NCBI GenBank assembly: GCA_963804645.1
Contig: CAWDRG010000022.1
Location: 111,642 to 175,641 of the forward strand
DNA: 64,000 bases
Reading direction: 5' to 3'
Origin: an uncultured Bacillota bacterium
Lineage (GTDB): Bacteria; Sysuimicrobiota; Sysuimicrobiia; Sysuimicrobiales; Segetimicrobiaceae
Both the position numbers and the translations under genes were made by a program. The notes under the pieces were generated by a model. It did not search any database. It had not been told where the DNA came from and saw only the letters and a program-made list of their open reading frames with translations. Each line of letters opens with the position of its first letter. The stretch's first letter is position 1. Below, one piece after another: positions 16,325 to 39,973 of this stretch.

Positions 16325-16720
16325 TCAGGGAAGAGCCCGTTTGACATCCGTATGGACAAAATCCTTGCCCTTGAACAATAGTGGCTCCCCCGTGGCCTTT
16401 GCCAGTGCATAAGCGAAGCAGTCGCCAAAGTTCAATTTCGCCGGGTGCCCGCTGCCTCGGCCAAAATCACGATAGGCGTCACGCGCGATCCGAGCCTGGG
16501 CCTCCGTAATCGGGGTAACGATAATCTGTGCCTCCTGCAACAACTCGTCGAAGCCCCGGCTGGCTACCGGATCCCGACCACCGTCGACGACCACCGCGGC
16601 CTCCACGAAACTTACCGCCGACAGGCGTCGGCTTTCCACCACTTGAATCGCTTCCGCATATAGAGCGGCATCGGGTTCGTCCCGAAGGATCGCCAGCAGC
16701 GCCGAGGTGTCAATGATCAT
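16325..16720 (-). CDS. vapC: VapC PIN-domain toxin
   Basis: [39 protein letters not shown]. Confidence 0.92.
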
Positions 16721-16971
16721 CGCGGGAGGCCGTGCTCGTCATAAAGCAGTTCCGCGTGATCGGCAGATCGATAGGGTTCCTTGAGGTGTTTGGCCGTCCG
16801 TTTGCCAATCGCCAGCAATCGGTCAGTAAGACTGTCTTGTTTCGCGCGTCGAACATGCTCCAGCCGCTCACGTATTGCCTCAGTCACAGCCGCGGTCATG
16901 CTCTCACCGGTAAGGGCGGCGAGTCTCTTGGCCAACCGGTGTGCCTCTTCGTTTTTGATGTTGAGGCCCAT
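16717..16971 (-). CDS. vapB: VapB antitoxin (RHH type)
   Basis: [31 protein letters not shown] overlap with vapC. Confidence 0.9.
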
Positions 16972-17170: not shown

Positions 17171-18630
17171 GCCTCTACCGGCTTTCGAGTGGGTACAGGT
17201 CCAGCCCTCCGCAGTGAAAGTAGATGGCCGTCTTGAAATTGTCGACGTTCCGGAAGCCGCGTGCGGTCTTCTTGACCCACTGGATCGTGGCGTTGACGGC
17301 CTCGAGCCCGGCATTCGTGATGCGGTGGCGATGGTAGGTCAGCACGTTCGGTAGGTGCCTGCGGATCAGCCACGCGACCTGCGCCATAGGCTTGAGCCGG
17401 CTGTGCGTGGCGCGCCAGAACCAGCGCGCGAAGAACGTCTCCGCGGACCGGCGGTAACTGTACTCCCAGAAATGTCGGAAGCGCTCCTTGAGTGCCCAGG
17501 CGCGTCCCACTTTCAGGTCATCGCCGAGCAAGAGCCGGAAGGTGCGCCGCTGTTCGGGCTTGAGCTCGCTCGGCCGGCGTAGCCAAAGGTATTTCGTCCC
17601 CGTCAACCGACGATCGGAGGAGCGGGACAACTCCCGGGGTTCGGTCCGCCGCACCTTGTCCACGGCCGTGTGGAGATGCTTCACGACATGGAACTTATCA
17701 AACACAATCTTGTCCACCCCGTCGGGCACGTGACTGGTGACCGAGTGTATGTAGGGCTCCCACATGTCCATCGCGACGGCGGCGATGCTCTCGCGCTGGG
17801 CCGGCGTGCAGGTGGGCCAGAAGGCGTCGAGGCTTTCCGCTTTGCGATCCTCGTTGACGAACAGCACCCGGTGGCGTTGCAGGTCCGCCACCACGGTCAA
17901 GTACCGGTGGCCTTTGGTGATTGCCTTCTCGTCCACGCCGACGTACGGGATCGGTTCCGCTGTCCGGCGCGCCAGCCCGCGCTTCACCGCCCGGCTCTTA
18001 ATCCCCCACGCTTCATCCCAGGTGATCCGGAGTAGGGCCGCCGCGCCGGTGACCGAGCATTCCCGCAGAAAGTCGATCGCCAACCGCTCAAACAACTGCG
18101 TGAACTGGCTGCCCGGCTCGGCCCACGGGATGGTGATCTGCTTGATCCCGTGCTGAGCGCACTGCACCCGCGGGACATCGGCTTCAATCCACGTGCGCAG
18201 CTGGAGCGTGTCCAGATGCCGCCACCGCCGCGGACGGCGATCATAGCCCGGCGACGGCGTCTGACATTCCGGACACGGAAACGGGCCCGGGCCCGCCTCG
18301 ACTTTCACCGTCACTTGCTCGCCGGGGATATCCACCTCCACCCCGACCACCTTCCACGGTGGCGTGAGCCCCAGGATCGTAGCGTATAACTCGACATCGC
18401 GCACCAGACCAGCCTCCTCACGAAGCGTTCCCGCCCCGCGGGTCAGATTGCGCCTGCCGACCATAGTGGCAGGGGTGCACCCGCCCCCGACGGCGGTCAA
18501 GAAGCGCGCAGCGCGCCGAAGGCCATGTTCTTGACGGCCGGCGGGGGTAGGTGTCTGGCTTTGAGCTGGTCGGCAGGCGTTGGTTTCTACTGGTCTACGC
18601 TATTTCACCCACACAACTTCCCGAAGAGCC
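17171..18630 (-). mobile_element. ISL3-family insertion sequence
   Basis: Imperfect 24-bp terminal IRs; 8-bp target duplication AATTAATT (17163-17170, 18631-18638). Confidence 0.92.
17175..18404 (-). CDS. ISL3 transposase
   Basis: Zn finger CPEC, RRWRHLD, GVDE, AMDMWEPY, FDKFHV, ITNA.LEA.N, ARGFRN. Confidence 0.93.
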   Translation of the reverse strand: MRDVELYATILGLTPPWKVVGVEVDIPGEQVTVKVEAGPGPFPCPECQTPSPGYDRRPRRWRHLDTLQLRTWIEADVPRVQCAQHGIKQITIPWAEPGSQFTQLFERLAIDFLRECSVTGAAALLRITWDEAWGIKSRAVKRGLARRTAEPIPYVGVDEKAITKGHRYLTVVADLQRHRVLFVNEDRKAESLDAFWPTCTPAQRESIAAVAMDMWEPYIHSVTSHVPDGVDKIVFDKFHVVKHLHTAVDKVRRTEPRELSRSSDRRLTGTKYLWLRRPSELKPEQRRTFRLLLGDDLKVGRAWALKERFRHFWEYSYRRSAETFFARWFWRATHSRLKPMAQVAWLIRRHLPNVLTYHRHRITNAGLEAVNATIQWVKKTARGFRNVDNFKTAIYFHCGGLDLYPLESR

Positions 18631-18671: not shown

Positions 18672-19406
18672 CTACGTCTTGGGCACCACGAGCGGTGTAA
18701 CGAACGCTTCCCGGACCCAGACGTTCGGCCCGGTGGCCAGAACGGACCGGACCACCTGGGCGACATCATCGGGACGGAGCGCCCAGTCACGGCGCGCCAT
18801 GTTGTCCGAGAACTCCGTCCGGACCGACCCGGGTTCAACTACGCTTACCTTCACGCCGCTCTGTCGGACCTCCAGACCCACCGCCTCAGTGAACCCAATC
18901 ACGCCAAACTTCGAGGCTGAGTAGGCGGCGCTTTCCGCCATTCCCAGGCGGCCCGCTCCCGAGGCGATGTTGATAATGTGCCCGTGACGCTGCGCGATCA
19001 TCACCGGCAACGCGGCCCTGGTAAAAAGAAACACCCCGGTCAGGTTGACGTTCATCAGACGCCGCCACGCATCGACCGGCATGGTATGGGTCGGTCCATG
19101 CCATCCGATCCCCGCGTTGTTAACCACGGCATCTAGCCGGCCTCCCCACTCTTGCGCGTGGGCGACCGCCGCCGCAGCGGTCGCCTCATCGGCCACGTCG
19201 CCGGCAACCCCCGCCGCCCGGTTCTCGCCGATTTCCTGGGCGACCCGGGCGAGATCGGTCTCCGTCCGCGAGACCAGGATGATCCGGGCTCCCGCAGACG
19301 CGAGTTCTATGCTCACCGCGCGCCCGATGCCTCGTCCCGCGCCGGTCACGATGATAACCTGATCAAGAAGCTCCTGACCCATCTCCGCACCTCCCGCCGC
19401 GCTCAT
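18672..19406 (-). CDS. SDR family oxidoreductase
   Basis: TGAGRGIG, NNAG, YSASK. Confidence 0.92.
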   Translation of the reverse strand: MSAAGGAEMGQELLDQVIIVTGAGRGIGRAVSIELASAGARIILVSRTETDLARVAQEIGENRAAGVAGDVADEATAAAAVAHAQEWGGRLDAVVNNAGIGWHGPTHTMPVDAWRRLMNVNLTGVFLFTRAALPVMIAQRHGHIINIASGAGRLGMAESAAYSASKFGVIGFTEAVGLEVRQSGVKVSVVEPGSVRTEFSDNMARRDWALRPDDVAQVVRSVLATGPNVWVREAFVTPLVVPKT

Positions 19407-19554
19407 GCGATATATGGTTCAACCTGCTGTGTCGAGGATCGTACCAGCATGCGCTGTAGCAACAACTCCCAGCAACAACCGGGCCACCAAGCATATTGCA
19501 ACGCGTCTCATCATCGTTGATCACGTCTGGAATACGGCCTAGGAACTAAGTTTC

Positions 19555-19803
19555 GGCTCTACCGGGTTTCCCGTGGGTAAAAGTCGGCCGCTTCCTAATG
19601 GATGGAGGATCGCTCTCAGAAGCATTCGGCCTGCCGGTCATATTAGCCCTTTCCCGAGACCAAGGCCGTCAACGGCTGCGCAGCGGGCCACAGGCTTTGC
19701 CGTTAAACGCCGCGGAAGCGGAAGAGTTGCTTTGCAAATGACCGGCAGGCGTCTTGTTTTCGTACCCATGTTCGCCTTTGCCCACACGATTGCCGGACGA
19801 TCC
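19555..19803. mobile_element. Non-autonomous ISL3-type miniature element or remnant
   Basis: GGCTCTACCGGGTTTCCCGTGGGT at left and GCCCACACGATTGCCGGACGATCC at right resemble the ISL3 IRs in inverted orientation; no ORF and no clear TSD. Confidence 0.55.
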
Positions 19804-19963
19804 GAAAAGGAAAGGGAGTCGCGGGTGGCAAGAGGTGCGCTGCCATGCGTAGTGTTTCTCAAAGCTTCGAGGCGAACCGGAAAGCATGTGTGATGTGATG
19901 ATGCCCCACGGTGCCAAAAATCGTGCAAACGAGTGAACAACCTTGCAGATAAAACCTGAGGCG

Positions 19964-19994
19964 TGGTGGACCCGATCTCAAAGAATTCGAACCG
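19964..19994. mobile_element. Putative serine-integrase attachment junction (core plus P' arm)
   Basis: TGGTGGA core followed by CCCGATCT-CAAAGAATTCGAACCG; the last 16 nt are the exact reverse complement of 23896-23911. Confidence 0.7.
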
Positions 19995-20298
19995 TTGCGG
20001 AAGTCCCCATCCAGTGGCCCTGCTCGACACCGGTGCAGTACCAGTGTACCAGCAAATCGCCCCGACGGCGCTTCATCTGCGGCAACTTGGCCTCGCGCGC
20101 GCAACTGAGCCCTACCCCTGCCTCGACAGTCGGTCTCGCCGGGTGTGCCACAGTGCGCTGAAGGACGTCACGTACGAGCGAAGGAGAGAAGAGGCGGTTA
20201 CGAAGTAGGTCGACGATCGCCCGTTCCATGAACGCCCGACGCACCACCGACCCTCATTCGTCTTCAGCCCGTCCCCGAAATGGAATGCCGCCGGGCAG

Positions 20299-21801
20299 TT
20301 AGCACGAACGGGTATCCGGAGGTACCCGTCCCTGCGCGTTCTGCGCACCTCGCAGACAGCTCATTAGTGAGTCAAGCGTGCGGAGATGTTCGAGGTCATG
20401 AAGCACCAGCCCTATGAGCTGCGTCCGACCCTCCGCAGACAAGCGCCCACTGGTCATTTCTGTAAACTTGGCGATGAGGTCACCGTCCGTGAACTTCGCG
20501 TCGGGAGGGCCCCACATGTCGCCGTATGCAAAGTCCGTCCGGAGCACAAAGCTTCGCTGCCGGCTTCGAAGCTCGATTTCACATGGCGCCTTTTTGAATA
20601 CATCCGCAATCGAGGACCCCGTCCACGGACGATAGTGCACTTCCGTCCCAGGTGGATTTCCTTCTACCCGAACCTTGGCCATCAAACGCTGAATTTCCGG
20701 GTCTCGACTCAGTGACAGGTCCACCCACTTGGGGCCTGGAATAATGCCTCTAAGTGCCAGCGCAACGGCAAATACCCCGCTCATATGGACGGCTTCTTGC
20801 GTGTCGGGCGGACCACCCTCGTTCGGGCGGTCCAGTCCGGCAGGCCCGGAAAACCGCAGCACAATCTCATCGATTTGCGTCACAGAGAGGTGTTCGGCAT
20901 TTCGGAGCCTGGACAACAGCCACAGGTGTGGTCGATACAGATTGCATACCGGCTCTGGTTTATACGAGAGCCAGCGCATGCACTCCCACGTGTGCCCGAG
21001 ATCTTCTAGCAGATACTTGGGTTCAAATCGGTGGGTATTCCACAGCGCCGGTAACCCATTGGGATCGTCCAATACGCTTGTATCTCCCGTATACCCGCGG
21101 GCCGCGAGGAACGCCGCCGATACGCCGACCTGAGCTGTCCATCCCATTGGAGAATACTTGACCATGGAAAACGGACGAGTGCGTAACCATTTAAGCAGAC
21201 TGGGGCCGGGGCTAAGGTATGTTGCCAGTCCCACCGCCTGTGTCATGCGTCCTACGTCAAGTCGCAACAATCTTCCAACCCCAACGGCCACGCCGAGCGC
21301 CCCATATCCATACCCAAACACTGGCCCGATCGCATACCGCGTCTTCAACCCGTCATGTCCCTCAAGCAAGGGGGCCATCGCCATCGTGAGACGCGCCGCG
21401 ATCTCGTAACCGATCAAGACAGCCTCGACCACGGATCGACCACTGGCCTTGACGTACTCCCCCGCCGCGAGAATGCCTGCGAGCACGCTTGGAACATGGT
21501 GTGCAACGTTCAAAAATACGGCGTCTCCGTCTAGCGCGTTGGCAAGTTCCGCATTGGCAAACGCTGCGCGGTCGACAGCGGTTTGAGACGTCATCCCAAC
21601 CACGGTCGCCTGCGGGGCTCCGGACATATCCTCTACGAATCCTGCAGCCAACCGCCCCTTTTCCGTCGCCCACCCACCGACCATGCACCCCAGGGTATCG
21701 AGAATGAGTCGTTTGACCTCGTAAACCAAGGCGTCCGATAGTCCAAGTTCCTGCTCAAGTGATCTGGCAGCAATCGTCTGTATTAGGTTCACCATATGCA
21801 C
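20299..21801 (-). CDS. MmgE/PrpD family protein
   Basis: VKRLILDTLGC..GG, AAFANAELANALDGD, IGYEIAARL, AARGYTG, YKPEPVC. Confidence 0.85.
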   Translation of the reverse strand: MHMVNLIQTIAARSLEQELGLSDALVYEVKRLILDTLGCMVGGWATEKGRLAAGFVEDMSGAPQATVVGMTSQTAVDRAAFANAELANALDGDAVFLNVAHHVPSVLAGILAAGEYVKASGRSVVEAVLIGYEIAARLTMAMAPLLEGHDGLKTRYAIGPVFGYGYGALGVAVGVGRLLRLDVGRMTQAVGLATYLSPGPSLLKWLRTRPFSMVKYSPMGWTAQVGVSAAFLAARGYTGDTSVLDDPNGLPALWNTHRFEPKYLLEDLGHTWECMRWLSYKPEPVCNLYRPHLWLLSRLRNAEHLSVTQIDEIVLRFSGPAGLDRPNEGGPPDTQEAVHMSGVFAVALALRGIIPGPKWVDLSLSRDPEIQRLMAKVRVEGNPPGTEVHYRPWTGSSIADVFKKAPCEIELRSRQRSFVLRTDFAYGDMWGPPDAKFTDGDLIAKFTEMTSGRLSAEGRTQLIGLVLHDLEHLRTLDSLMSCLRGAQNAQGRVPPDTRSC

Positions 21802-21860
21802 ACCTCGTGGTTCGATAAGCCCGGCGTCACGGGCTCCGACGATAGAGTGCAGATCTTAGC

Positions 21861-22015
21861 TTATCGCGCACGCGGATCAAGGGAGTCACGAAGTGCGTCC
21901 CCGAACGAGGCGACCACGACAACTATCAGGGGTAGAAAGATTCCCGGCATCGTCGAAATCCACCGTACGCTATCCAAGGAGTTGCGGCCCTGACTAATTG
22001 TGACTCCCAGTGAAG
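21861..22015 (-). pseudogene. Peptide ABC permease (DppC-like) C-terminal fragment
   Basis: PSLGVTISQGR....WISTMPG....GDALRDSLDPR. Confidence 0.7.
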
Positions 22016-22252
22016 GGGTCGATGAAGCGGATTTGCGGGGATGAGCTCGTAGTCGACCGCGGCGGACGATCAGAAAGGCGACCAGGTTCAGGATCGTCTG
22101 CTCGGATAGGATTGGCCGGTCGAGATTCGGATTCTCCCACGTAGTAGACAGCGACGCGAACATGCTGCAATGCGCTTGTCCTCCCGGCTGGTCACGGTGC
22201 GTCCTCGTCTCGCGGCTAACTCGTCCGCACCTCCACGCTCGTCGACCGGGTT

Positions 22253-23140
22253 CTATGCTCGCTCTGCGCTCGGGGTACCGGTCCGAGGCCGGCGGACCAG
22301 AGCGCCGCCCGCAGGCCACAGCGCGTCGCGCAGTTCGGGGCGCTGCCATTGGGTCAGCACCCCAGCCTTGGCGCCATTGCGCCGCTGCGAGTCCACCCGG
22401 TCATCCTGGGCGCGCAGGTCGCGGATGCGGTCCAGGCCAATCTCTACGAGAAACAGGCCCGGCTGCGTGGTCTCAAAGATAATCTCCTCGGGGGCGGCGA
22501 CCATTGCCAGTCCCCGTTGCTCCCGTCCAAAAAGGTTCTGGGTCGTTGCCACGATGGCCAGGTTTTCGATTGCGCGCGCCCAGATGAGACAGCGCCACGA
22601 GGCCCACAGCTGCTGCTTATCGGTCCCCGCCGGTAGGAAAATCATTTCAGCGCCCCGCAGCGCCAAGGCGCGGCTGACTTCCGGCATATACACCTCGCTG
22701 CACATGGCGAGGCCGATCGTCCCGTACTCGGTATCGAACACCGGGAATTCGTCCGCGGCGACGTAGTCGAAATCCCAATCGGTCCCGCCACGGTAGATCC
22801 AGGGTCCGGGCGGATAGGTCCGCCGGTATCGCCCCGGCGACCCGCCGGTCGGGCGCGCCAACAAGAGCACGTTGTACGCCCGTCGCGTGCCGTCGTTAAA
22901 CGGCTCGAGCGTTCCGAACACGACATACACGCCGTAGCGCGCGGCGGCCTCTGTCATCTGCGGTATCGGATCAAACAGCGTCGGCACCCGCCACGGCCCG
23001 GGGTAGGTCTCCGGAAACAAGACAACCTGGGCGCCCTGTTGCGCCGCTGTCTCGATGTGCCGCACAGCGGCCGCCACGTTGCGTTCGTCGTTCGGTGGCC
23101 GGTGCGCTAGTGGCTGTACTATCGCAAGCGTGCAATTCAT
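22253..23140 (-). CDS. Carbon-nitrogen hydrolase family protein
   Basis: LFPETYPG, YRRT, MCSEVYMPE, ARAIEN. Confidence 0.85.
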   Translation of the reverse strand: MNCTLAIVQPLAHRPPNDERNVAAAVRHIETAAQQGAQVVLFPETYPGPWRVPTLFDPIPQMTEAAARYGVYVVFGTLEPFNDGTRRAYNVLLLARPTGGSPGRYRRTYPPGPWIYRGGTDWDFDYVAADEFPVFDTEYGTIGLAMCSEVYMPEVSRALALRGAEMIFLPAGTDKQQLWASWRCLIWARAIENLAIVATTQNLFGREQRGLAMVAAPEEIIFETTQPGLFLVEIGLDRIRDLRAQDDRVDSQRRNGAKAGVLTQWQRPELRDALWPAGGALVRRPRTGTPSAERA

Positions 23141-23895
23141 CCCGTCACTCCACGCAAAGCAGCTTGGCTACCCAACGCCTTGGCTTCTGTATCTGGGCCG
23201 AGCCTGGGGTTCCGGACGAACGTCAGCGGCACCCCCATGTTCCCGCAGTCGATTCCGCACCACGCACTGAGTGGTGATGGTCGCGGTCCGCGTACCGGTC
23301 GGGGTCGTTGACAGCTCCCCGTGCGGGAGACGCGTCTGGGCCACGGAACGCCGCCCCCAGCGGTCGTAGGGCACGGGTTCGTCCTGGGGGTGGGGATTCC
23401 TCCCGGCCGGACGCCTTCCGTCAGTACGCCGCCTCCAGGGCCCGTGTGGCGGCTCTGGAGTTCCGCTTGATCGCGCGGACCCACTCGTAGATCGCGTTGC
23501 GGAATCTCCACCGAGGCTCATGGAGCTCCATGTCCACCGCCAACCCATGCGTTCGGCGTCGCGGTCTGCATGGCGGCGCGCTGGATGCTCTGCAGCCCGT
23601 ATCAAGAAGCGAGGATGGCCGAATGACCGGCGCGGGCATGGACAGAAGTGAAGCGCCAGTGCTGCCAGTCCGCTGACGCGTTGCGCATGTCCCCGGGGAT
23701 GGGATCCAGCGCGGAAGCCACCTCCCCAACGCACGGTCATCCCAAGAACCGTGGAAGGCACCGGTCGAGGTCTGAGCACGCCGGTTCTATCATGAACCCG
23801 TGGGAATGCCGGCCGACACGCTTTCACAGGTCGCGTTGTCCGTCAATATCCTGACGCCCATTGGGCACGCCGGGCCAAGACGAAGTGCGGGGAGG

Positions 23896-23943
23896 CGGTT
23901 CGAATTCTTTGCGCTGGTGGAGGCGGCGGGAATCGAACCCGCG
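23896..23943 (-). repeat. Perfect tmRNA 3'-end copy (23915-23943) with adjacent att arm (23896-23911)
   Basis: 29/29 identity to 39623-39651, preceded by CGGTTCGAATTCTTTG-CGC. Confidence 0.92.
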
Positions 23944-23948
23944 GCCAG

Positions 23949-23985
23949 TTGACATCATGATGCCGATCACGATAGCATCATGATG
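23949..23985 (+). promoter_or_regulatory. vapBC promoter with twin palindromic operators
   Basis: TTGACA-N18-TAGCAT; CATCATGATG at 23953-23962 and 23976-23985; GTG start 7 nt after the -10 with no RBS. Confidence 0.8.
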
Positions 23986-24230
23986 TGCGAACGACACTTA
24001 CGCTAGACGATGACGTTGCGGTCAGGGTCAAGGCCGAGGCCCGAAAGTCAGGCCGTTCTTTCAAGGAGGTCGTGAACAGTCTCCTCCGTCTCGGGCTGAC
24101 AAAGAAGCATGAGAGCGGCACGATCGACCGTTTCGTCGTGCGAACCCGGCCACTCGGCCGCAGACCGGGACTCAACTACGACAAGATCAGTGAACTGATC
24201 GAGCATGTCGAAGGACCTCTCCATCGATGA
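23985..24230 (+). CDS. vapB: VapB/CopG-type antitoxin
   Basis: MRTTLTLDDDVA......A...GRSFKEVVN..LR.GL; ATGA overlap with vapC. Confidence 0.88.
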   Translation: MRTTLTLDDDVAVRVKAEARKSGRSFKEVVNSLLRLGLTKKHESGTIDRFVVRTRPLGRRPGLNYDKISELIEHVEGPLHR

Positions 24231-24658
24231 TTCTGATCGATGCCAACGTCCTCTTGTACGCGTATAACCCGTCTGCGCAACAACACGGACGCGCGCGGGA
24301 CTGGCTGCAGGACACGCTGAGCAAGCCTGAGCCTACGGGCCTCGCCTGGATCACGATCCTGGCGTTCCTTCGGTTGACAACAAACCCGCGAGTTTTTGAG
24401 ACCCCGTTCCTTCCAGAGGAAGCTATTCCACTCGTTTCATCGTGGCTTGCGAGAACGAACGTCATCGTATTGCAGCCAGGTGAGCATCACTGGCAGATTT
24501 TTGCCAATCTCCTCACGGCTACGCGCGCGCGCGGCGCGCTCGTGATGGATGCGCATCTCGCCGCACTTGCAATAGAGCACGGCGCCAGCCTCGGAACGAC
24601 AGACAACGATTTTGCGCGGTTTCCAGGTCTTCGTGTGATCAACCCGCTAGAAGAGTAG
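24227..24658 (+). CDS. vapC: VapC PIN-domain toxin
   Basis: MILIDANVLLYA, FLRLTTNPRVF, DAHLAALAIEHG, TTDNDFARFPGL..INPL. Confidence 0.92.
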   Translation: MILIDANVLLYAYNPSAQQHGRARDWLQDTLSKPEPTGLAWITILAFLRLTTNPRVFETPFLPEEAIPLVSSWLARTNVIVLQPGEHHWQIFANLLTATRARGALVMDAHLAALAIEHGASLGTTDNDFARFPGLRVINPLEE

Positions 24659-24691
24659 CCCGTCCGCGGTAGGATGGTAAACTTGACTTCT

Positions 24692-24719
24692 TGGTGGAGG
24701 CGGCGGGAATCGAACCCGC
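24692..24719 (-). repeat. tmRNA 3'-end copy
   Basis: 28 consecutive identities to 39623-39650. Confidence 0.92.
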
Positions 24720-24800
24720 CGTCTTTCTGGACCGCCGTATCCGAGGCGTTTTCAGGAGAGAGCCGGTTTGCCGCACACGATGAGCAGTCGCGCGCACCGA

Positions 24801-25340
24801 TCATACGCCCGGCGCCTTGTCTTTGGGGAACTCCTCGCGGCGCCAGACGAACCCGAGGTAGTCCAAGTTCTGTGCTTCGACGCCAAGTTGTCGCAACATC
24901 GCCATCACCTGCGCGCGGTGGTGCGTTTCGTGTAGGAGCATCTGAGTCGCGAGGTCAGCCTTGGTCATGGTCCACACGATGACCATGTCGCCTTCCTCGA
25001 TGCGGCGAGTCACGGTCCGGGTCCAGTCAGAGATTCCAGCCAGCGTCGCCCGTGTTTCTCTAGCCTGCGTCGTCCAAAATCTCTCGAGATCGGCAAACGT
25101 CGGCAAATTCGTCTCACTAACGGGGAAGGTTGCGGGCAGCGGCGGAGCCGGCACCGGTTCTTCGCGCAACCGCTTTCCGTAGACCAGTTCTGCCCTGACG
25201 ATCTCAAGCAACGTGGCGCGTAGCGTGCCGAGCCCGAACGGAAACCGCTGCGTATACTGCGCCTGGCTAAGTGGGCGGACCCAATTGAAGAGCCGTTGGC
25301 GGGCTTGCGTCAACACGTCGTACACACGAGGGTATTCCAC
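24801..25340 (-). CDS. DinB family protein
   Basis: GTLRATLLEI..AE, QMLLHETHHRAQVMAMLRQLG; GGAGGT RBS before GTG 25340. Confidence 0.85.
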   Translation of the reverse strand: MEYPRVYDVLTQARQRLFNWVRPLSQAQYTQRFPFGLGTLRATLLEIVRAELVYGKRLREEPVPAPPLPATFPVSETNLPTFADLERFWTTQARETRATLAGISDWTRTVTRRIEEGDMVIVWTMTKADLATQMLLHETHHRAQVMAMLRQLGVEAQNLDYLGFVWRREEFPKDKAPGV

Positions 25341-25556
25341 GGCGTCACCTCCGTAGCCCGATACTTCTTTCACCTGCGCGGCCTCGGAAACCTATGACGC
25401 CCCTGCGTTTGAGACGTCCCACAAGGGCGAGAGCGCGCTTGCGATTCATTCCTTTTAGCAACATGCGCGCCGCGTCGGGATCGTACCAAGGATAACGCCC
25501 CCATTCTTCGAACAAACGAACCACGATTCGTTCGACATCCGCGAGGAGAACAGAGC

Positions 25557-26297
25557 ATGAAATGGCCGCTGTGGCTGAAACGGGCGACCATGGCCCTTGT
25601 GTGTGGAGGCGGGGTGTTTCTAGGGGCAGGCGCGGCACAGGCCATCCCGGTGACCTTGACCGGAACCGCGTGGCTTAACCAACCCGCCTCAGTGTCCATG
25701 AATGCGTCGCTTCCCACTCCCGCCTTCCCGCCGGATCTGACGTTTACGGTGACAACGAGCAACGATCTCTTCTTCAGCTCGTGCTTGACTCTTTCGCCCA
25801 GTGGGGTATGTACGGCGCCGACGAATGCGTATACCGTCGGCACTTGGTTGAACACCCCGCCCGTCGTCGGTACGCAGGTCCTCGGGAGCTTTGCTAGCCC
25901 CAGCGGGTTGGGCGTCGCGAACGCCCTGGCCAATACCGTGGACAACTCGTACTGGGACTTTCAGGGGATCGTAAACGTGACGAGCGGCGAGGTGTTCACG
26001 GTGACCCACGACGACGGCGCGACCTTCCTCGTCAATGGCGTTGCTATCCCAGGCATCAGCCCGAACCCGACGGGACCAATCCAGGACATCATCACGTATA
26101 CTGGCCCGACCCTCGCCAACGCGTTGTTCGAGATGGTCTACAGTGAGTGCTGCACCGCTCCGGCGGTATTCGAAACCGACTTCCCTACCTGTGGGTGTAT
26201 CATCACTCCAGTTCCTGAACCCGGCAGTCTGGCGTTGCTCGGCACCGGCGCCTTTGGGCTCATCGCATTCGCCCGGAGACGTTTCCGAGTACTGTAG
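25557..26297 (+). CDS. PEP-CTERM sorting-domain surface protein
   Basis: Signal peptide; Thr/Pro-rich body with THDDG; C-terminal VPEPGSLALLG-TM-RRR. Confidence 0.88.
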   Translation: MKWPLWLKRATMALVCGGGVFLGAGAAQAIPVTLTGTAWLNQPASVSMNASLPTPAFPPDLTFTVTTSNDLFFSSCLTLSPSGVCTAPTNAYTVGTWLNTPPVVGTQVLGSFASPSGLGVANALANTVDNSYWDFQGIVNVTSGEVFTVTHDDGATFLVNGVAIPGISPNPTGPIQDIITYTGPTLANALFEMVYSECCTAPAVFETDFPTCGCIITPVPEPGSLALLGTGAFGLIAFARRRFRVL

Positions 26298-26416
26298 TCG
26301 CCAGAAGTGGTCGCTGAGATGGGTCGCCGCACGTGACGTTCTTCTCCCCGGCGATCAGCGGCGAGGACTATTCTGTTACCCGTCAGTATACGCTCCAATC
26401 GTATTGCTCTTCGTCG

Positions 26417-26770
26417 TCAGTTACTGTCGGTCTCCTTTTGATGTGAACCGGACGCGGCCTCCTCGAGGTCTTCAAACTGCGTGATCTCGTAGTCTCCCTC
26501 AGGGAACTCCGCGATGATTCGCAATCGACCATGCATGGCTTCCACATAACTGCGAAGGGTGCTGATATAGGCGTCGGTGCGATGTTCTAACTTCGAGATT
26601 TCACCTTGCGAGGTATTCATATCCTTTGCGAGTGTTTGCTGCGAGAGTGTACGCGCACGCCGCAACTCTTGAAGAGGCATGGCGGCGAGAATAGCCTCTG
26701 CACGCTCCTTTGCGCGAACCTGGCGATCTAGCGGCATTTTCCCACGTAGACGAGCGAACTTTTTAGCCAT
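26417..26770 (-). CDS. XRE-family antitoxin (HigA-like)
   Basis: LQELRRARTLSQQTLA....SQGEISKLEHRTD.YISTLRSYVEAM.G. Confidence 0.88.
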   Translation of the reverse strand: MAKKFARLRGKMPLDRQVRAKERAEAILAAMPLQELRRARTLSQQTLAKDMNTSQGEISKLEHRTDAYISTLRSYVEAMHGRLRIIAEFPEGDYEITQFEDLEEAASGSHQKETDSN

Positions 26771-27140
26771 GTCGCTGCTCCTCTCGGCCTATCTCCGCTA
26801 AGTGTTCATCATAAAGACGATCGGCGACTGGGATATACGAGCTGTAAAACTCTTCATCTGTAAACCCCTTCTTGTCGGCCCCGATAAACAAGATCGCAGT
26901 CCGACGTGGATCGAAAGCGTACAGGATTCGAATGGGATGTCCCCGGCTCTGAACGATGCGCTCGCGCATGTTCCGATGCCGGGAGCTTTTGACAGTATCC
27001 GCGTGAGGCCGCATCAATGCCGGACCACGAGCCTCAAGCAAGTGTACAAACACGTCAATGTCCTCTTGAGTCTCGGCATCTAAAGTGGTCCACCACTCTT
27101 CAAACTGGTCTGTGTATTCGACCTCCCACGGACCGACCAT
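26763..27140 (-). CDS. RelE/ParE (HigB/Gp49-like) toxin
   Basis: WEVEYTDQFEEWW, GPALMRPHADTVKSSRHRNM, RILYAFDPRRTAIL; toxin-first order; start trimmed to ATG 27140. Confidence 0.88.
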   Translation of the reverse strand: MVGPWEVEYTDQFEEWWTTLDAETQEDIDVFVHLLEARGPALMRPHADTVKSSRHRNMRERIVQSRGHPIRILYAFDPRRTAILFIGADKKGFTDEEFYSSYIPVADRLYDEHLAEIGREEQRHG

Positions 27141-27371
27141 GGCTGAAGTATAGGGGGGGGAGGGAATTATTCTGTCAAGCCTATGTCGCGGTGGTGCGAG
27201 GCGGGACCAAGGAGCCCCCACCCTAGCCCTTGTGGAATAAGGCTTAGCGATGCCTCGCGGTACGTGGGCGTGGGGGGGACCGCACGAACGCGGGAAGCAC
27301 CGCACAGTGCGGGCACCGGCATCAACGTTCAGCCCACCGCAGCGTCGTGCAGTCGGATGCAGCCGAGTACG

Positions 27372-27400
27372 TGGTGGAGGCGGCGCTAATCGAACCCGCG
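27372..27400 (-). repeat. tmRNA 3'-end copy
   Basis: 27/29 identity (GG to CT change in the T-stem). Confidence 0.88.
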
Positions 27401-27489
27401 GCCTGTGCTCCTCTTCGACACTTTGCCAGCGGATCTCGATGCGGACCCGCGTCGGGCCAATATTGTACGTGGCAAGCGGGCGCTGATGA

Positions 27490-27513
27490 GTATATACTAA
27501 GTGTGTATACAAT
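27490..27513 (+). promoter_or_regulatory. Displaced promoter/operator of vapBC at 28918
   Basis: GTATATAC and GTGTATAC boxes with TATACT/TACAAT; would sit about 30 nt before vapB if the IS were removed. Confidence 0.65.
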
Positions 27514-27532
27514 GTCATTGGTGTCGGAGGAA

Positions 27533-28901
27533 GAGCTCTAGTCAAGAGATGTGGAAATTGCATCAAGCGGCGCCCTTCCTTTTCTTCGCTGACTCGAGCG
27601 CTTCCACGCCATTGACGAACTGAACGCCCTCGAGCACCTTGGCCACCAAGTGCGGTGCGTCGATTCGTCGCCACCGCTGCTCTGCACGGCGGATAAGTTG
27701 GAAGACGAGGTACAATCCAGTCTGCGCCTTACGCATGCGGCGTGTCGCGCGCGTGCGCAGTCGCACCGGATCAAAGACCGACTCGATCGGATTGGACGTC
27801 CGAAGACTCTTCCAGTGCTCCCGCGGGAACTCATAGTACGTGAGCAGCTCGGCCTGATGATCCCGGAGGGAAGCCACCGCACGCGGGTAATCTCGCTCGA
27901 AGCGGAGCGCGAATTTCGTGATCCGGGCTTCGGCCTCGTCCCGCGTGGGCGCGGTGTAGACGTCCCGCACGAGCGTGCGGGCCTCCGGCTGCAGGCGCTG
28001 CGGTAGCTTATCGAGCACGTTGAGCATCTTGTGACACCAGCAGAGTTGATGCCGCGCCGTCGGATACACCTCCCCGACCGCCGCCCAGAGTCCCAGGCCG
28101 CCATCCCCAATGAACACGCGCACGGTTTTGAGGCCACGCCGGCGCAGATCCCGCAACACATCGCGCCAGCTCTCGCGAGACTCGCGATAGCCTTCGACCA
28201 TTGCCAGGAGCTCTTTCTGGCCGTCCTCCGTCACGCCGATGATGATCAGCACGGCCGTCTTCTCGTCGGCCGGCCCGGCTTTCAAGTAGAGCCCGTCGGC
28301 CCAACAATAAACGTAGCGCGCGTCGAGGCGTCGGTGGGTCCACGTCTCATAGTCCGCCTGCCAGCTGGCTTTCAAGCGGACGATCGACGTCGGACTCAGG
28401 GGCGCGGCCTCTCCCAGAACCGTGCGGAGGGCCGGCTCAAAGTCGCCGGTGGCCAGTCCTTGCAGATAGAGCTCGGGTAACAGGGCGCGGACGGCGTCGC
28501 TCGAGCGCTGATACCGCGGCAGCACGTGGGAGTGAAACGCTTCCGTGGTGTCGCTGACCCGTGGGGGCCGAACCTCGAGCGTCCCGCAACCCACCGCGAT
28601 CTTGCGCGGCTTCCCGGCGCCATTCCGGTACCCGCGCCGCCGTGCCCCGCCGCGCTCATAGCGAGCCCGGCCGAGGAATTCCTCCACTTCTTGCTCTAAC
28701 GCGCCCGCCAGCATGCGCTGCGCGCCCTCACGCGCGAGGACGTCCAACGTCGCGCGTACTTCCTCCTTGTCCAACCCCCCTTGTGGCTGATATCCTGGCA
28801 TTGGCGTACTCCTTTCCCCTCCCCAGCAAGGGAGGTTCCGATGTGGGTGGATCTCGGAAAGGGTACGCCACTTGAATTTCCACACCCTTTGACATTAGCT
28901 C
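27533..28901 (-). mobile_element. IS256-family insertion sequence (copy A)
   Basis: Imperfect 27-bp IRs (GAGCT...GTCAA...TGTGGAAATT); 8-bp TSD CGGAGGAA. Confidence 0.93.
27563..28801 (-). CDS. IS256 transposase
   Basis: YRNG, LPELYLQGLATGDF, WADG.Y.K, GDG.LGLW, LRTSNPIES. Confidence 0.93.
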   Translation of the reverse strand: MPGYQPQGGLDKEEVRATLDVLAREGAQRMLAGALEQEVEEFLGRARYERGGARRRGYRNGAGKPRKIAVGCGTLEVRPPRVSDTTEAFHSHVLPRYQRSSDAVRALLPELYLQGLATGDFEPALRTVLGEAAPLSPTSIVRLKASWQADYETWTHRRLDARYVYCWADGLYLKAGPADEKTAVLIIIGVTEDGQKELLAMVEGYRESRESWRDVLRDLRRRGLKTVRVFIGDGGLGLWAAVGEVYPTARHQLCWCHKMLNVLDKLPQRLQPEARTLVRDVYTAPTRDEAEARITKFALRFERDYPRAVASLRDHQAELLTYYEFPREHWKSLRTSNPIESVFDPVRLRTRATRRMRKAQTGLYLVFQLIRRAEQRWRRIDAPHLVAKVLEGVQFVNGVEALESAKKRKGAA

Positions 28902-28917
28902 CGGAGGAAATCCTGGA

Positions 28918-29148
28918 ATGGCCAAGACACGGGTATTCCAGAGTGGAAATTCGCAGGCCGTACGTCTCCCAAAGCAATTCCAGTTTGACGTAGATGAAGT
29001 CGAGATCTTCCGGCGAGGCGATGAAGTTGTTCTCCGGAAGGTTCCTGACAATCTGACCGGGGCGTTCACCCTGCTCACAGGTCTGTCCAGAGACTTCATG
29101 GCCGGTGGCCGGAGTCAGCCATCTACTCAGAAGCGCCGCGGTCTCTGA
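28918..29148 (+). CDS. vapB: AbrB/SpoVT-type VapB antitoxin
   Basis: TRVFQSGNSQAVRLPKQFQF. Confidence 0.92.
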   Translation: MAKTRVFQSGNSQAVRLPKQFQFDVDEVEIFRRGDEVVLRKVPDNLTGAFTLLTGLSRDFMAGGRSQPSTQKRRGL

Positions 29149-29552
29149 TGCGATACCTAATCGATACGGATACATGCATCGCAGTCGCCAGACAAAGGCC
29201 GATGCACGTTCTCGAGCGGCTCCGGCGACTGAGGCCGGGAGATGTCGGGATGTCGGTCGTGACATACTTGGAGCTGTGCTATGGCGCGCTAAAAAGTCAG
29301 GCCCCGAGCGCGAACTTCGAAAAACTAGCGACACTGGCGGGCTTGATTCCGCCGCTCCCGTTGGAGGCCAATACTGCATCGCACTACGCGCGTATCCGAG
29401 TAAAGCTCGAACGCAGCGGACGGCGTATTGGAGGATATGACATGCTTATTGCTGCCCACGCGTTAACCTTACATTTGATCGTGATAACAAACAACGTCGC
29501 CGAGTTCTCACGAATTCAAGGACTTCGGTTGGAGAATTGGCTGGCACAGTAG
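29148..29552 (+). CDS. vapC: VapC PIN-domain toxin
   Basis: YLIDTDTCI, EL.YGA.KS, IGGYDMLIAAHA, TNNVAEFSRIQGLRLENW. Confidence 0.92.
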   Translation: MRYLIDTDTCIAVARQRPMHVLERLRRLRPGDVGMSVVTYLELCYGALKSQAPSANFEKLATLAGLIPPLPLEANTASHYARIRVKLERSGRRIGGYDMLIAAHALTLHLIVITNNVAEFSRIQGLRLENWLAQ

Positions 29553-29577
29553 ATAAGTCAGTTCGAACTCGTTGCGT

Positions 29578-29603
29578 TGGTGGAGGCGGCGGGAATCGAA
29601 ACC
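29578..29603 (-). repeat. tmRNA 3'-end copy interrupted by IS256 (continues at 30981-30991)
   Basis: Removing the IS and one TSD gives TGGTGGAGGCGGCGGGAATCGAAACCGCG, 28/29 identity. Confidence 0.9.
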
Positions 29604-30980
29604 GAGGTACCCTCAAAGGGTGTGTAAATGCTGAAGGCGGTGTATCCTCCTGAGAGAGAGACCAACAACCAGGCCTTGTCAGAGGCCCAGGGAGGAAACA
29701 CACCGCCATGGACAAGCAGAACACGGATCACGACACGTCGTCAAGTCCCAGCTGGGACAAGTTGGAGGCCTGGGCTCGGATGCAGATCCAGACGTGGTTC
29801 CAGGATCTCCTCGAGGCGGAAGTCACGGAGCTGCTCGGGCGCCGCAAGGCGCAACGCCGACCGGCCGTGGACGCGCCGGCGGGCTATCGCAACGGCTATG
29901 GCAAGCCGCGGCGGCTGACGCTGAGCGCCGGGACGATTACGGTGCGACGTCCGCGCACCCGCGGGCTGGAGGACCGGTTCGAGAGTCGGCTCTTGCCGTT
30001 GTTCGTCCGCCGGACGCGCGAAGTGAACGCCCTGCTGCCGGAGTTGTATCTGCATGGCCTGGCCCAGGGGGATTTGGCGCTGGCGCTGCGCGGGCTCCTG
30101 GGCGAGGCCGCGCCGCTGTCCGCGAGCACGGTGGCCCGGCTCACAGAGAAGTGGCAGGGGGAGTACGAGGCGTGGAACCAGCGCCGGGTGGACGAGCTGG
30201 AAGTGGTCTACCTCTGGGTCGATGGGGTCTATGTCAAGGCCGGTCTGGAGAAGGACAAGGCCGCGCTCCTGGTCGCGCTGGCGGGCTTGAGTGATGGCCG
30301 CAAGGTGCTCCTCGCCGTCGCGAGCGGGCCCCGGGAATCCACGGAGGCCTGGGGCACGTTCCTGCGGGCGCTGCGCGCGCGGGGGCTCTGCGCGCCGAAG
30401 CTGGTGATCGGGGATGGCCATCTGGGGATCTGGGGCGCGCTGCGCGACGTGTATCCGGAGGCGGCGGAGCAGCGGTGTTGGAATCACCGCATCGTCAACG
30501 TGCTGGACACGCTCCCCAAGCGCGCGCAACCGCAGGCCAAGCCCCTCCTGACCGCGATCGCGTACGCGGAGACGCGGGAGGAGGCCGAGCGGCGGAAGGC
30601 CGCCTTCCAGCGCTGGGCCACCGGCCGGGGGCACGAGGACGCCGTGCGCGTACTGGATCGCGACTGGGACCGGTTCGTCACCTTCTACCAGTTCCCCCGG
30701 GAGCACTGGTCACATCTGCGGACGTCGAACCCGGTGGAGTCACCCTTTGCGGCCTTGCGGTTGCGCACGGATGCCGCGAAACGCTTCAAGAAGGTTGCCA
30801 ACGCGCGCGCGATCATCTGGAAGCTGTTGCTGGTCGCGGAGCGCCGCTTCCGACGGCTCACCGCCCCGGAGCGTGCCACTGAGGTCTACCTAGGCGTGAA
30901 GTTCGTGAATGGCGTGAAAGTCACGACCAACGGTCAGGAGGTCGCCGCCTGAAGATTTACACACCTATTGACGGAACCTC
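29604..30980 (+). mobile_element. IS256-family insertion sequence (copy B)
   Basis: 26-bp IRs with 22/26 match; 8-bp TSD TCGAAACC. Confidence 0.93.
29708..30952 (+). CDS. IS256 transposase
   Basis: YRNGYGKPR, LPELYLHGLA, WVDG.YVKAG, GDGHLGIW, LRTSNPVES. Confidence 0.93.
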   Translation: MDKQNTDHDTSSSPSWDKLEAWARMQIQTWFQDLLEAEVTELLGRRKAQRRPAVDAPAGYRNGYGKPRRLTLSAGTITVRRPRTRGLEDRFESRLLPLFVRRTREVNALLPELYLHGLAQGDLALALRGLLGEAAPLSASTVARLTEKWQGEYEAWNQRRVDELEVVYLWVDGVYVKAGLEKDKAALLVALAGLSDGRKVLLAVASGPRESTEAWGTFLRALRARGLCAPKLVIGDGHLGIWGALRDVYPEAAEQRCWNHRIVNVLDTLPKRAQPQAKPLLTAIAYAETREEAERRKAAFQRWATGRGHEDAVRVLDRDWDRFVTFYQFPREHWSHLRTSNPVESPFAALRLRTDAAKRFKKVANARAIIWKLLLVAERRFRRLTAPERATEVYLGVKFVNGVKVTTNGQEVAA

Positions 30981-31620
30981 TCGAAACCGCGACCCCTGCT
31001 CTATCGCCTATCCCTGTCTACCTGCGCATGCGTCTGTAGAGCTTGCTGCGCAATGCGTTCACCCTCTTCTTCGACCACTGTTCATTCGTCCAATTCCGGC
31101 TATGGCTGGCAAGTGGTGTGACAATAGCGTGACAGCCACATCAGATCCTCCGGCCACCTAGTGTCGCTGTGATCGCCCCAAACGGTATCCGACGGCTTGA
31201 ATGGCCCCCGGTGAGGGGATGAGCGATGGAATCGGCGCGGATACCTCCCGACGCGCATCCGCGACGGTCGCATGGGCCTCCTGCCACGGAGCGAGTGCGT
31301 TCCGCATCCTCTGCACCACGTCGACGAACTCGGACGCGATTGACACGTTGACAGTGCCTGCTCCCTTCAACTCGCCGAGCAACCGGCCAAGATTCTAAGG
31401 AAGGACAGAACGGGCTCTTCTGGGGCTCGGGCTGCAGAAGACCGGGGTGATCTTCCGAGACAAGGTGCTCAGGAGTATACTGAGGGTGAGTCGAAAAGCT
31501 AAAGTGAAAATTCCGGCTCAGGAGGGTGGTTTCGGTAGAAGCTGGTGAGGGTCAGGACCGCAGCGCAGCAATCTCCGTGCAGCGGGTCACAGGGTTCATG
31601 CTCGGAGGGGAGGCACCGAT

Positions 31621-33974: not shown

Positions 33975-33975
33975 G

Positions 33976-34803: not shown

Positions 34804-34804
34804 C

Positions 34805-37224: not shown

Positions 37225-37295
37225 AGGAGACCCGACGACCATTGGGACGCCGTTCTCGATGTGCGGCGCGGGCCCTGCGATCGGTGAGGGCGGCG

Positions 37296-38201: not shown

Positions 38202-38269
38202 TCCCACCCGAAGGGCTCGCTAGCGGAGCGGGCAGCGGTGTGATGAGCGCAATCTCTTTCCGTGAGCCG

Positions 38270-38438
38270 CGATGATTCCGCGACACCCGAACCCGCAGAT
38301 AGGCATACTCCCGAATGTCCCATCCATACATCTTGTCGTACAGGGTGTAGAACCGAGATTGTGGCTTCTTCTCACCTTGGCGTGGAGCTGCCGCTGAAGG
38401 GTCCGAATCCGCTCCGGGATTCCTAAGCTCCTCGCCAA
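38270..38438 (-). pseudogene. Group II intron reverse transcriptase N-terminal remnant
   Basis: SLGIPERIRTLQRQLHAK, then after a frameshift RFYTLYDKMY..DIREYAYLRV (RT0-like). Confidence 0.7.
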
Positions 38439-38501
38439 TCCTCCATCATTTCGCTCCGTTGAACGGCATCTCAGAACTGAGGTCTCTTCCCTCCGCCGGC
38501 T

Positions 38502-38530
38502 TTGTGGAGGCGGCGGGAATCGAACCCGCA
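38502..38530 (-). repeat. tmRNA 3'-end copy
   Basis: 27/29 identity, with 26 consecutive matches. Confidence 0.9.
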
Positions 38531-38588
38531 CCCCCAAGCTTCGTCCCAAGACACTTGGAAATCCCAAGAATAGACCGATCCACATGGT

Positions 38589-38627: not shown

Positions 38628-38633
38628 ATGCCC

Positions 38634-39622: not shown

Positions 39623-39973
39623 TGGTGGAGGCGGCGGGAATCGAACCCGCGTCCTGAAGCCGCGAGGGCAGGGCATCTACGCGCGTATCCTGCGGTTTGG
39701 TGTCGCGGGACCGGACTCCCGCAGGCCGGATTCCAATCCCGCCAGCTCTCTAGGTCTTAGCCGGCCCTCCCGGAGCGAGGAGAACCGGAGCATCCGGCTG
39801 GTGACGCTCGATCCCCGCCCGCCGGCGCTGCGGGGGGAGCGACGCTACTTAATTAAGCAGCGTATGCGAGCTGATTGTCGGCGTGTATGCGCCGTCCAGT
39901 TGTTTAACGAGGACCTGGACCACCTCGGCGCGCCACCCTGCTTCTGCCTGCTCAGTCGAAGCCGTTCGCCCCC
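39623..39973 (-). ncRNA. ssrA: tmRNA
   Basis: 5' GGGGGCG pairs with 3' CGCCTCC-ACCA including the G3:U alanine wobble; T-arm GCGGG-TTCGATT-CCCGC; tag ORF 39882-39853 ADNQLAYAA*; 351 nt. Confidence 0.97.

Follow-up and report, generated by a model that had tools for sequence, protein, structure and literature searches.

A relic element end downstream of ssrA and a family of serine recombinases whose attP probably lies inside the recombinase gene

Introduction

Positions 19964-20100 of a 64,000-nucleotide stretch of DNA from an uncultured Bacillota bacterium (contig CAWDRG010000022.1; the whole stretch is called the window below) are read here as the attL end of a dead large serine recombinase (LSR) element. 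It would belong to a family whose attP lies inside the LSR gene, so that the gene is split by integration, and this reading is given a probability of about 0.8. The family is a widespread one, and the insertion point of its LSR elements is formed by the last bases of transfer-messenger RNA (tmRNA) and tRNA-Ala genes. For the family, the exchange of the LSR C-terminus is real at the DNA level, because LSR frames are open across the site, the detached tail evolves as coding sequence without a conserved start, and rejoined sites carry continuous frames. The two protein forms would presumably differ in activity.

In the proposed arrangement, attP would lie about 75 codons ahead of the stop of the LSR gene. 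Its P arm would code for GSNSL, the core for x-W-W and the P' arm for QRIRT (full peptide TR[S/T]QRIRT), and the next ~60 codons for a flexible linker and a three-helix helix-turn-helix (HTH) domain. Integration would proceed by crossover in the core TGGTGGA, probably at GA. The LSR body would then remain at attR beside the RNA gene, with its frame running into the antisense of that gene, while the tail, which has no start codon of its own, would come to lie at attL, on the far side of the element. Both parts would be rejoined in frame by excision or by the insertion of a second element next to the first.

The recombinase frame across the crossover core

The first-pass annotation of this region had suggested that a lost recombinase gene ended across attP. 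At the family level, this suggestion has held. LSR ends were collected at 54 loci in species genomes of many phyla, chosen independently of the arm motif and including metagenome-assembled genomes (MAGs) labelled Acidobacteriota, Actinomycetota, Gemmatimonadota, Myxococcota, Dormibacterota, Gammaproteobacteria and others. In each of the 42 LSR ends that have a P arm, the frame continues across the core, without a stop ahead of it. Similarly, among the integrated copies in the window's own family, the LSR frame is open through the core into the antisense of the RNA gene in 10 of 11; the exception, L023, has a TGA directly after GSNSL. The frame of the LSR remnant in the window is also open through the core. 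Homologues that stop before the core are thus absent from the first sample and limited to one copy in the second. As an example of an intact enzyme, the LSR of L064 matches Resolvase, Recombinase and Zn_ribbon_recom at 98, 73 and 34 bits, all above the cut-off.

Where the frame reads into antisense tmRNA, it often ends at the same place. A common stop 19 codons after WW is found in 27 of the 42 ends (...LRA or ...LRV before the stop; L172-L220), and the integrated form would therefore have a fairly uniform substitute tail, RRRESNPRP... As for targets, 36 of the 54 loci are at tmRNA, 5 at tRNA-Ala and 3 at tRNA-Met genes; 7 lack such a gene within 300 nt, and in 3 the C-end was not matched.

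Some more distant relatives were also seen. LSR relatives without the GGTTCGAATTC arm lie at tRNA-Met or tRNA-Val in three Arenicellales MAGs (L169, L170, L174) and in one IMG/VR contig (L226, at tRNA-Val). The latter is one of the three nearest viral loci; the other two, L224 and L225 (IMG/VR, on 152-kb and 28-kb contigs), end in ...ALRWWRRRR and a stop over tmRNA-end-like sequence. The LSR clade seems to shift its target among tRNA-like 3' ends. In viral contigs, the 18-nt pattern gave no matches and a single LSR query no relatives; an LSR alignment search gave 37 loci, and the tail profile matched none of their plus-strand frames. In plasmids, tblastn returned only LSRs of less than 30% identity, including one 752-aa Planctomyces plasmid recombinase.

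Arms, core and site geometry

The features of the window on which the reading is built are the following, with the strand in brackets.

39623..39973 (-): tmRNA gene (ssrA), the target of the element family; ARAGORN, and Rfam RF00023 at 152.7 bits
19964..19970 (+): attL core TGGTGGA, common to the CCA end of the tmRNA gene; the same 7 nt lie at 23915-23921
19971..19994 (+): P' half-site, CCCGATCT, then the 16-nt arm CAAAGAATTCGAACCG (19979-19994)
19964..20094 (+): probable detached LSR C-terminal tail, a pseudogene; WWTRSQRIRTVAEVPIQ, then in the next frame VALLDTGAVPVYQQIAPTALHLRQLGL; HTH helices 2 and 3 gone
23789..23914 (+): LSR C-terminus remnant, equivalent to aa 515-562 of an intact relative (tblastn), ending ...DEVRGGGSNSLR
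23896..23911 (+): P arm CGGTTCGAATTCTTTG, which codes for GSNSL
23915..23943 (-): B' half, a 29-nt tmRNA 3'-end copy that has been displaced; leftmost of six copies

The ends of the relic are attL at 19964 and attR at 23896-23921. The arms CAAAGAATTCGAACCG (19979-19994) and CGGTTCGAATTCTTTG (23896-23911), which flank the cores, form a perfect 16-nt inverted repeat; of the 47 inverted pairs listed for 19400-24100, the 25 longest include no other perfect 16-mer. Directly before the leftmost tmRNA 3' copy stands CGGTTCGAATTCTTTG followed by CGC, with 3 nt between arm and copy; this placement, and the RNA-gene neighbours seen in relatives, are those of an island that targets tRNA-type genes. The two peptides of the first-pass annotation could be read as described: on the plus strand, GGGSNSLRWW from 23891 is followed by RRRESNPRPVDI, the antisense of the tmRNA 3' fragment, and WWTRSQRIRTVAEVPIQ from 19964 continues, after a 1-nt frameshift, as VALLDTGAVPVYQQIAPTALHLRQLGL.

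When the ends of the relic are rejoined (23896-23921 with 19971-19994), perfect 16-nt arms surround an 18-nt spacer, CGCTGGTGGACCCGATCT, with GA at its centre. The result has the form of an LSR attP, a site of ~50 bp in which inverted half-sites flank a central dinucleotide. From this symmetry, the crossover dinucleotide is probably GA, 19969-19970. The distance from GA to the start of GGTTCGA is 23 nt in P and in P', and 18 nt in the tmRNA half. According to the legend of Figure 6 in PMC3783163, the zinc-ribbon motif of a Listeria integrase stands closer to the centre in attB than in attP, by 5 bp. The same 5-bp shift is seen in the window, counted from a dinucleotide that was itself placed by symmetry, and thus the T-loop of tRNA-Ala or tmRNA would act as the outer attB motif. 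Across the core from the RNA gene, the flank is not conserved among copies. This may let an element insert beside an existing one, giving P-P' junctions in long contigs (L069, G017:C4).

Both ends of the relic recur elsewhere. A DNA search of 41 relatives showed 19964-19998 and 23862-23946 to be each conserved in other genomes, and the 16-mer (with at most one mismatch) is present in 14 of 23 family genomes, compared with none for a reversed control pattern. It occurs in two contexts. On the RNA-gene side, the 3' end of a tRNA-Ala or tmRNA gene (tRNAs as called by ARAGORN), ...CTCCACCA, is followed by 3 nt and then the 16-mer, which here is the antisense of an LSR C-terminus, ...GDIGRPYY[TV]ARTSLNTLALLD...GSNSL-x-WW. 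At the far end, an unrelated flank is followed by TGGTGGACCCGnnCG, the 16-mer and the tail peptide. For instance, at the far end in G022:C85 the tail is unbroken by a frameshift, ...PVYQRVASKALHLQQLGLGPVVIARRFGIDRKTVAKALAWL... up to its stop; beyond it lie a MerR-like gene and a serine recombinase N-terminus. A metagenome scan with ACCCGNNCGCAAAGAATTCGAACC matched 115 stretches; the 80 that were retrieved hold 68 distinct far-end copies. With a looser pattern, and with the genome loci and the window included, there are 82 distinct far-end copies, 6 of them too short to judge.

The tail at the far end

The tail is an in-frame piece of ~73 codons, made up of a linker and an HTH, and is unbroken in the WW frame in 45 of the 76 judged copies. 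For work on codons, 43 tails were used, that is, these 45 without L074 (internal deletion) and L107 (frameshifted). Codons 11-27 of the linker lie outside the ~50-bp site and ahead of the folded domain. Their ratio of nonsynonymous to synonymous polymorphism (pN/pS) is 0.57, compared with 1.06 and 1.49 in the shifted control frames, and pairs of copies differ on average by 0.41, 0.34 and 0.63 at the first, second and third codon positions, the third being the most variable. The HTH part of the tail has a pN/pS of 0.47. Conservation of a coding type downstream of the site, on which the first-pass idea of a protein tail depended, was thus found.

As to fold, 39 of the 43 tails were combined into one profile, A1. 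AlphaFold2 gave low confidence to residues 1-27 of A1 and predicted helices at 28-41, 46-53 and 57-68 with a predicted local distance difference test score (pLDDT) above 90. Pfam HTH_23 scored E 0.004-0.03, below its cut-off, in all five sequences scanned. Foldseek gave no match to the tail fold at E <= 0.001; its top rows, none of which reaches this threshold, are HTHs of ParB/Spo0J/KorB, IstA transposase and Tn3/gamma-delta resolvase. The tail is therefore a likely but not proven DNA-binding HTH. The first-pass remark that the peptide at 19964 resembles the start of an HTH agrees with the conserved linker and likely HTH in the tails of relatives. The window copy itself lacks helices 2 and 3 and has no Pfam match.

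Rejoined junctions and complete elements

In 9 of the 68 metagenome far-end copies, the P arm lies directly upstream, so that a complete attP is present. The arms at such rejoined junctions are head to head, 17-18 nt apart. Frames that run continuously from LSR to tail have 581 codons in L095 and 417 codons in L069, whose P-P' junction lies in a 126-kb contig; those of L085 and L068 run to the start of the locus. The L095 frame contains part of Resolvase, then Recombinase, Zn_ribbon_recom and, at residues 535-562, a sub-threshold HTH_23. The upstream LSR is decayed in L055, L067, L087 and L128. Fusions were also found in the protein library, where 6 of 18 retrieved matches to the tail profile join an LSR C-end to the tail (P0024, P0033, P0141, P0134, P0011 and P0002; the arms of P0134 have diverged).

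Two further cases stand apart. At L040 (G017:C4:5322-5370), 2.2 kb from the tmRNA gene, P and P' are rejoined across a 17-nt spacer; this site comes directly after a 641-codon open frame that by eye is leucyl-tRNA synthetase-like, and a second far-end copy is found at 7632. In the library protein P0133 (330 aa), an end that by eye resembles a tyrosine-recombinase-like gene runs in frame into the tail, most likely as a chance read-through from the flank of attL.

Complete integrated elements are 2681-2797 nt long and have the order attL, tail, MerR-like gene, LSR, attR. Two lie at tmRNA (L064, L133) and two at tRNA-Ala (L065, L070); L071 is a decayed fifth element and L173, from a MAG, a sixth. 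The MerR-like protein, of ~190-200 aa, is always between tail and LSR (L064:2834-3427 on the minus strand, L065, L070, L133, L068 and L090). It has an N-terminal HTH, REWTLTEAARLLGEPQHRLIYLCEKGVV, and in L064 its match to MerR_1 has E 6e-4, just below the cut-off. This protein is a candidate directionality factor or regulator.

Larger spacings also occur. In 4 of 5 genomes checked with the tail profile, there is a single stop-free tail on the same contig and strand as the LSR, upstream of it by ~7.8, 8.8, 11.4 and 21.6 kb (contig coordinates being assumed equal to record coordinates). Therefore, the family includes islands with cargo, as in the window. Tails were also seen in direct arrays, namely four intact tails in 5.5 kb in L124 and three tails, two of them intact, in L075; they are spaced by 1.2-2.3 kb without an LSR between them and resemble stacked attL ends.

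The copy in the window

The copy in the window is a relic. By tblastn, its LSR part matches only at 23789-23944, corresponding to aa 515-572 (E 9e-7, 43% identity), and a three-frame reading shows ~45 broken codons with an in-frame stop and at least one frameshift. To the left of 23915, 14 open codons precede GSNSL, with a stop upstream, and the frame has 43 codons from stop to stop. Neither Pfam nor tblastn found an LSR catalytic domain in the window, and in tblastn searches with the proteins of an intact element neither the MerR-like gene nor the LSR body had a homologue there. Since only ~45 broken C-terminal LSR codons remain and the catalytic domain is lacking, this copy is a relic and not a working member of the family.

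The tail is in a similar condition. When compared with the tail of L064 by tblastn, it falls into two pieces in two frames, 19964-20014 and 20005-20094. The frame from 19964 requires a frameshift after codon 17, helices 2 and 3 of the HTH are missing, and a Pfam scan of this frame gave no match. Both halves in the window are pseudogene remnants, and therefore nothing switches there. The window frames are weak by themselves; it is the recurrence of the motif and of both peptides in other genomes that alone sets them apart from chance.

Observations against the exchange and alternative explanations

Several observations weigh against an exchange of this kind. No intact full-length LSR-plus-tail gene was seen among the rejoined junctions or the library fusions: the L095 frame is short of about the first 100 residues and the L069 frame of the first 220, both being without the N-terminal catalytic part, and the library fusions are fragments of 113-288 aa. 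Thus, of the first-pass claim that the excised form carries an extra HTH-like tail, the part upheld is the continuous LSR-tail frame at P-P' junctions and not a full-length protein. L122 has a TAG in the core of its rejoined junction, and a 17-nt spacer, which breaks the frame, occurs in 2 of about 12 rejoined junctions (a second site in L122, and G017:C4). Moreover, frame continuity across attP follows from the fixed geometry of the site and is not independent evidence of translation. Tails are broken in 31 of the 76 judged copies, including that of the window, and the intact set was picked for absence of stops, which biases it slightly to the WW frame. A candidate start is present in codons 3-27 of 24 of the 43 intact tails, often GTG at codon 18. 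Finally, among 29 tails with at least 2.9 kb downstream, 24 have no LSR or MerR-like homologue within ~4 kb; such tails fit large islands, but also a tail that leads an independent existence.

The alternative that survives best is that the tail is an independent small HTH gene, encoding a regulator or excision factor, just inside attL, and that the run of the LSR frame into the RNA gene is accidental. Because of the candidate starts, the LSR-distant tails, the 17-nt spacers, the broken tails and the selection for open frames, this explanation retains some weight, although it is improbable. The 24 tails noted above do offer an in-frame ATG, GTG or TTG, and the folded domain begins only at residue 28, after a stretch of low confidence. 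Nevertheless, no start position is common to all tails. ATG is found in 5 of the 43; all three codons are absent from codons 3-27 in 19 tails, and from the whole of the first 45 codons in 11. Upstream of the candidate starts, the linker still shows the coding pattern of the WW frame, and it does so in the 19 start-less copies too (pN/pS 0.55).

Protein libraries bear on this alternative in both directions. The A1 profile, run exhaustively over 1.84 billion representatives, matched 1727 at E <= 0.001 and 670 at E <= 1e-10, and gene callers list hundreds of tail-bearing proteins of 69-170 aa, as an independent gene would predict. However, the best 150 of the 1727 matches, which are mostly of this size, start for the most part upstream of WW, at varying distances and with unrelated flanks. 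A word-index search with the 74-aa tail of L013 against longer proteins scored 0 of 419 candidates, and one with the C-end and tail of L095 returned only its own record, P0152; this method is weak by design. Similarly, intact tails are often far from any LSR and sometimes arrayed, as the four in L124, but genomes with an LSR have one tail, at the far end of the island, in four of the five checked. Finally, an LSR stop ahead of the end of the core was seen in none of the 42 copies of the one sample and in 1 of the 11 of the other.

A second alternative, that the frames are chance by-products, has very little probability left. Arms and core would then be conserved only as DNA to which the recombinase binds, and high G+C would keep short frames open. 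The window by itself would agree with this, since its left frame has only 43 codons from one stop to the next and its right frame is shifted. So would codons 1-10 of the tail, which are nearly invariant as DNA (pS 0.13), and the length of the spacer, which is set by site geometry. Against this, conservation runs ~190 nt past the 50-bp site with the third-position pattern described above, the other two frames contain stops in 41 and 32 of the 43 copies, and the tail has a three-helix domain predicted at pLDDT >90 and the 670 library representatives at E <= 1e-10. For the family, chance frames are refuted; for the copy in the window, the lack of a working gene is already part of the explanation by a dead LSR element. 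Lastly, terminal repeats of a transposon or insertion sequence at 19979-23911 are scarcely credible: a perfect 16-nt repeat does bracket 3.9 kb, and ISL3- and Mutator-family transposases are found elsewhere in the window, but no transposase lies between the arms (Pfam), the arms have no target duplication, one arm in relatives always abuts a tRNA or tmRNA 3' end and is part of an LSR gene, the arms meet head to head 17-18 nt apart at rejoined junctions, and arm-bounded copies with target duplications at tRNA-unrelated sites were not seen.

Interior and surroundings of the relic

The remaining features of the relic and of its family in the window are listed here.

19995..23788 (-): relic interior, without a recombinase (Pfam; tblastn)
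20299-21801 (-): MmgE/PrpD-like gene in the relic interior (Pfam)
22253-23140 (-): CN_hydrolase gene in the relic interior (Pfam), with unassigned open reading frames (ORFs) alongside
29563..29603 (+): second, degenerate attR of the same LSR family; arm CAGTTCGAACTCGTTG, CGT, tmRNA 3' copy

The interior is probably cargo or replaced DNA. Homologues of the CN_hydrolase in relatives have 72-75% identity and lie on other contigs, and the 16-mer scan of family genomes found no arm on those contigs.

The tmRNA 3' end, TGGTGGAGGCGGCGGGAATCGAACCC, is repeated on the plus strand at 23915, 24692, 27372, 29578 and 38502 with 0-2 mismatches. Together with the end of the gene itself, this makes six copies, compared with none in 100 shuffles. 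Downstream of ssrA there is thus a stack of islands, with the relic at its far end. The degenerate attR at 29563-29603 matches LSR aa 556-574 at 74% identity (tblastn), and therefore this LSR family has inserted at this ssrA at least twice.

Other contents of the stack were noted in passing. The islets in 23915-39973 hold toxin-antitoxin-type pairs, two Mutator-family transposases (Pfam PF00872, Transposase_mut) and a transporter/sulfatase cluster. Those of the toxin-antitoxin type are RHH and PIN at 23985-24658, HTH and Gp49-like at 26417-27674, and AbiEii-like at 38909-39520. The Transposase_mut genes are at 27563-28885 (-) and 29708-30952 (+), and 31621-37224 encodes a solute-binding protein, ABC transporter components and a sulfatase. 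Pfam found no integrase gene among the ORFs scanned in these islets. An Rv0623-like antitoxin and PIN toxin pair is found at 16325-16971 (-), and an ISL3-family transposase at 17175-18500 (-), close to the left end of the relic. The region at 19964 has the look of a tRNA end, and an RNA gene there was considered and rejected: across the window ARAGORN gives the tmRNA gene only, and at this position Rfam gives nothing at the gathering score, with one chance snoRNA row (E 1.7).

Relation to known systems

Attachment sites inside genes are known from other systems. In archaeal tyrosine integrases of the SSV1 type, attP lies inside the integrase gene, which is partitioned by integration, and a large part of the enzyme is removed. 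Those enzymes are tyrosine recombinases, of another chemistry and fold, whereas the LSR family would exchange a terminal HTH module only. In the integration-dependent immunity of mycobacteriophages, attP lies inside the repressor gene; integration alters the C-terminus, giving two forms, and a degradation tag is lost. That case concerns a repressor and a degradation tag, and the present one a recombinase and a domain of DNA-binding type.

The closest parallel is in Dehalococcoides islands. McMurdie et al. (2011; BMC Genomics 12:287, PMC3146451) describe dsiB, the gene of an ssrA-specific serine integrase, as always overlapping att, with its stop outside the island, and suggest that it is perhaps fully functional only on the circle or beside an island with 'the requisite 3' gene fragment'. 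Compared by described gene arrangement and att features, the present family resembles these islands in that a CcrB-like LSR stands at the ssrA-proximal edge, islands are stacked downstream of ssrA, and the LSR gene overlaps att at its 3' end without a stop of its own before att (42 of 42 and 10 of 11 copies). McMurdie et al. did not identify the 3' fragment, whereas here a conserved linker and HTH of ~73 residues lies at the far end. Other differences from the account given there are that crossover in the present family would fall in the last 7 nt (TGGTGGA), at the CCA end, in place of the T-loop and its 20-bp ssrA repeat, and that tRNA-Ala is targeted as well. The six-gene DsiB module, which includes a small second serine recombinase, DsiA, is unmatched: the 2.8-kb elements consist of tail, MerR-like gene and LSR only, without DsiA, ParB or Mom genes.

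Likenesses to the phage LSRs as presented by Rutherford et al. (2013, PMC3783163), namely the Listeria A118-type, phiC31 and Bxb1, are the Resolvase, Recombinase and Zn_ribbon_recom domains, an attP that is a pseudo-palindrome of ~50 bp, and an outer motif 5 bp nearer the centre in attB. Unlike the systems presented in that article, the family has attP inside the integrase ORF and an additional C-terminal HTH after the zinc-ribbon/coiled-coil region. In addition, attB lacks conservation in its left half, on the downstream side of the RNA gene, and the elements can be as small as 2.8 kb and are not phages. Among open-access papers and bioRxiv, no description of a far-end HTH tail that is conserved was found, and only McMurdie et al. 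(PMC3146451) make the point that attP lies inside a serine integrase gene. Thus, what was known is an LSR island at tmRNA or tRNA genes with an integrase gene spanning attP; what is new is that the missing C-terminal piece has been identified as a linker and HTH.

Possible function and significance

Serine integrases are valued for the simple rule that sets their direction: they recombine attP with attB alone, and the reverse reaction occurs only with a directionality factor. Integration that rewrites the C-terminus of the enzyme would add a second, genetic layer of control. It is possible, though on balance doubtful, that the full-length form serves integration or self-repression when the element is excised and that the integrated copy makes the tail-less form. 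More tentatively still, the detachable HTH tail could be a built-in commitment switch for which no separate directionality factor would be needed to set the state. Only the circle, or an older element to which a tandem insertion has brought the tail of its neighbour, would make a full-length LSR-HTH that drives integration or shuts its own promoter. The integrated enzyme, tail-less and ending in ~19 antisense-tmRNA residues, would have another site preference or stability. If this switch exists, tandem insertion would re-arm the integrase of the inner element, which would explain the stacked islands at ssrA.

At the level of the window, the result is modest, a single dead copy. For the family, the '3' gene fragment' guessed for Dehalococcoides ssrA islands in 2011 is now supplied, and with it two defined protein forms. 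The arrangement also accounts for many orphan 'HTH proteins' of 70-170 aa and for 'recombinase' genes that are called too long next to tRNA and tmRNA genes; the tail and arm motif marks the exact ends of such islands.

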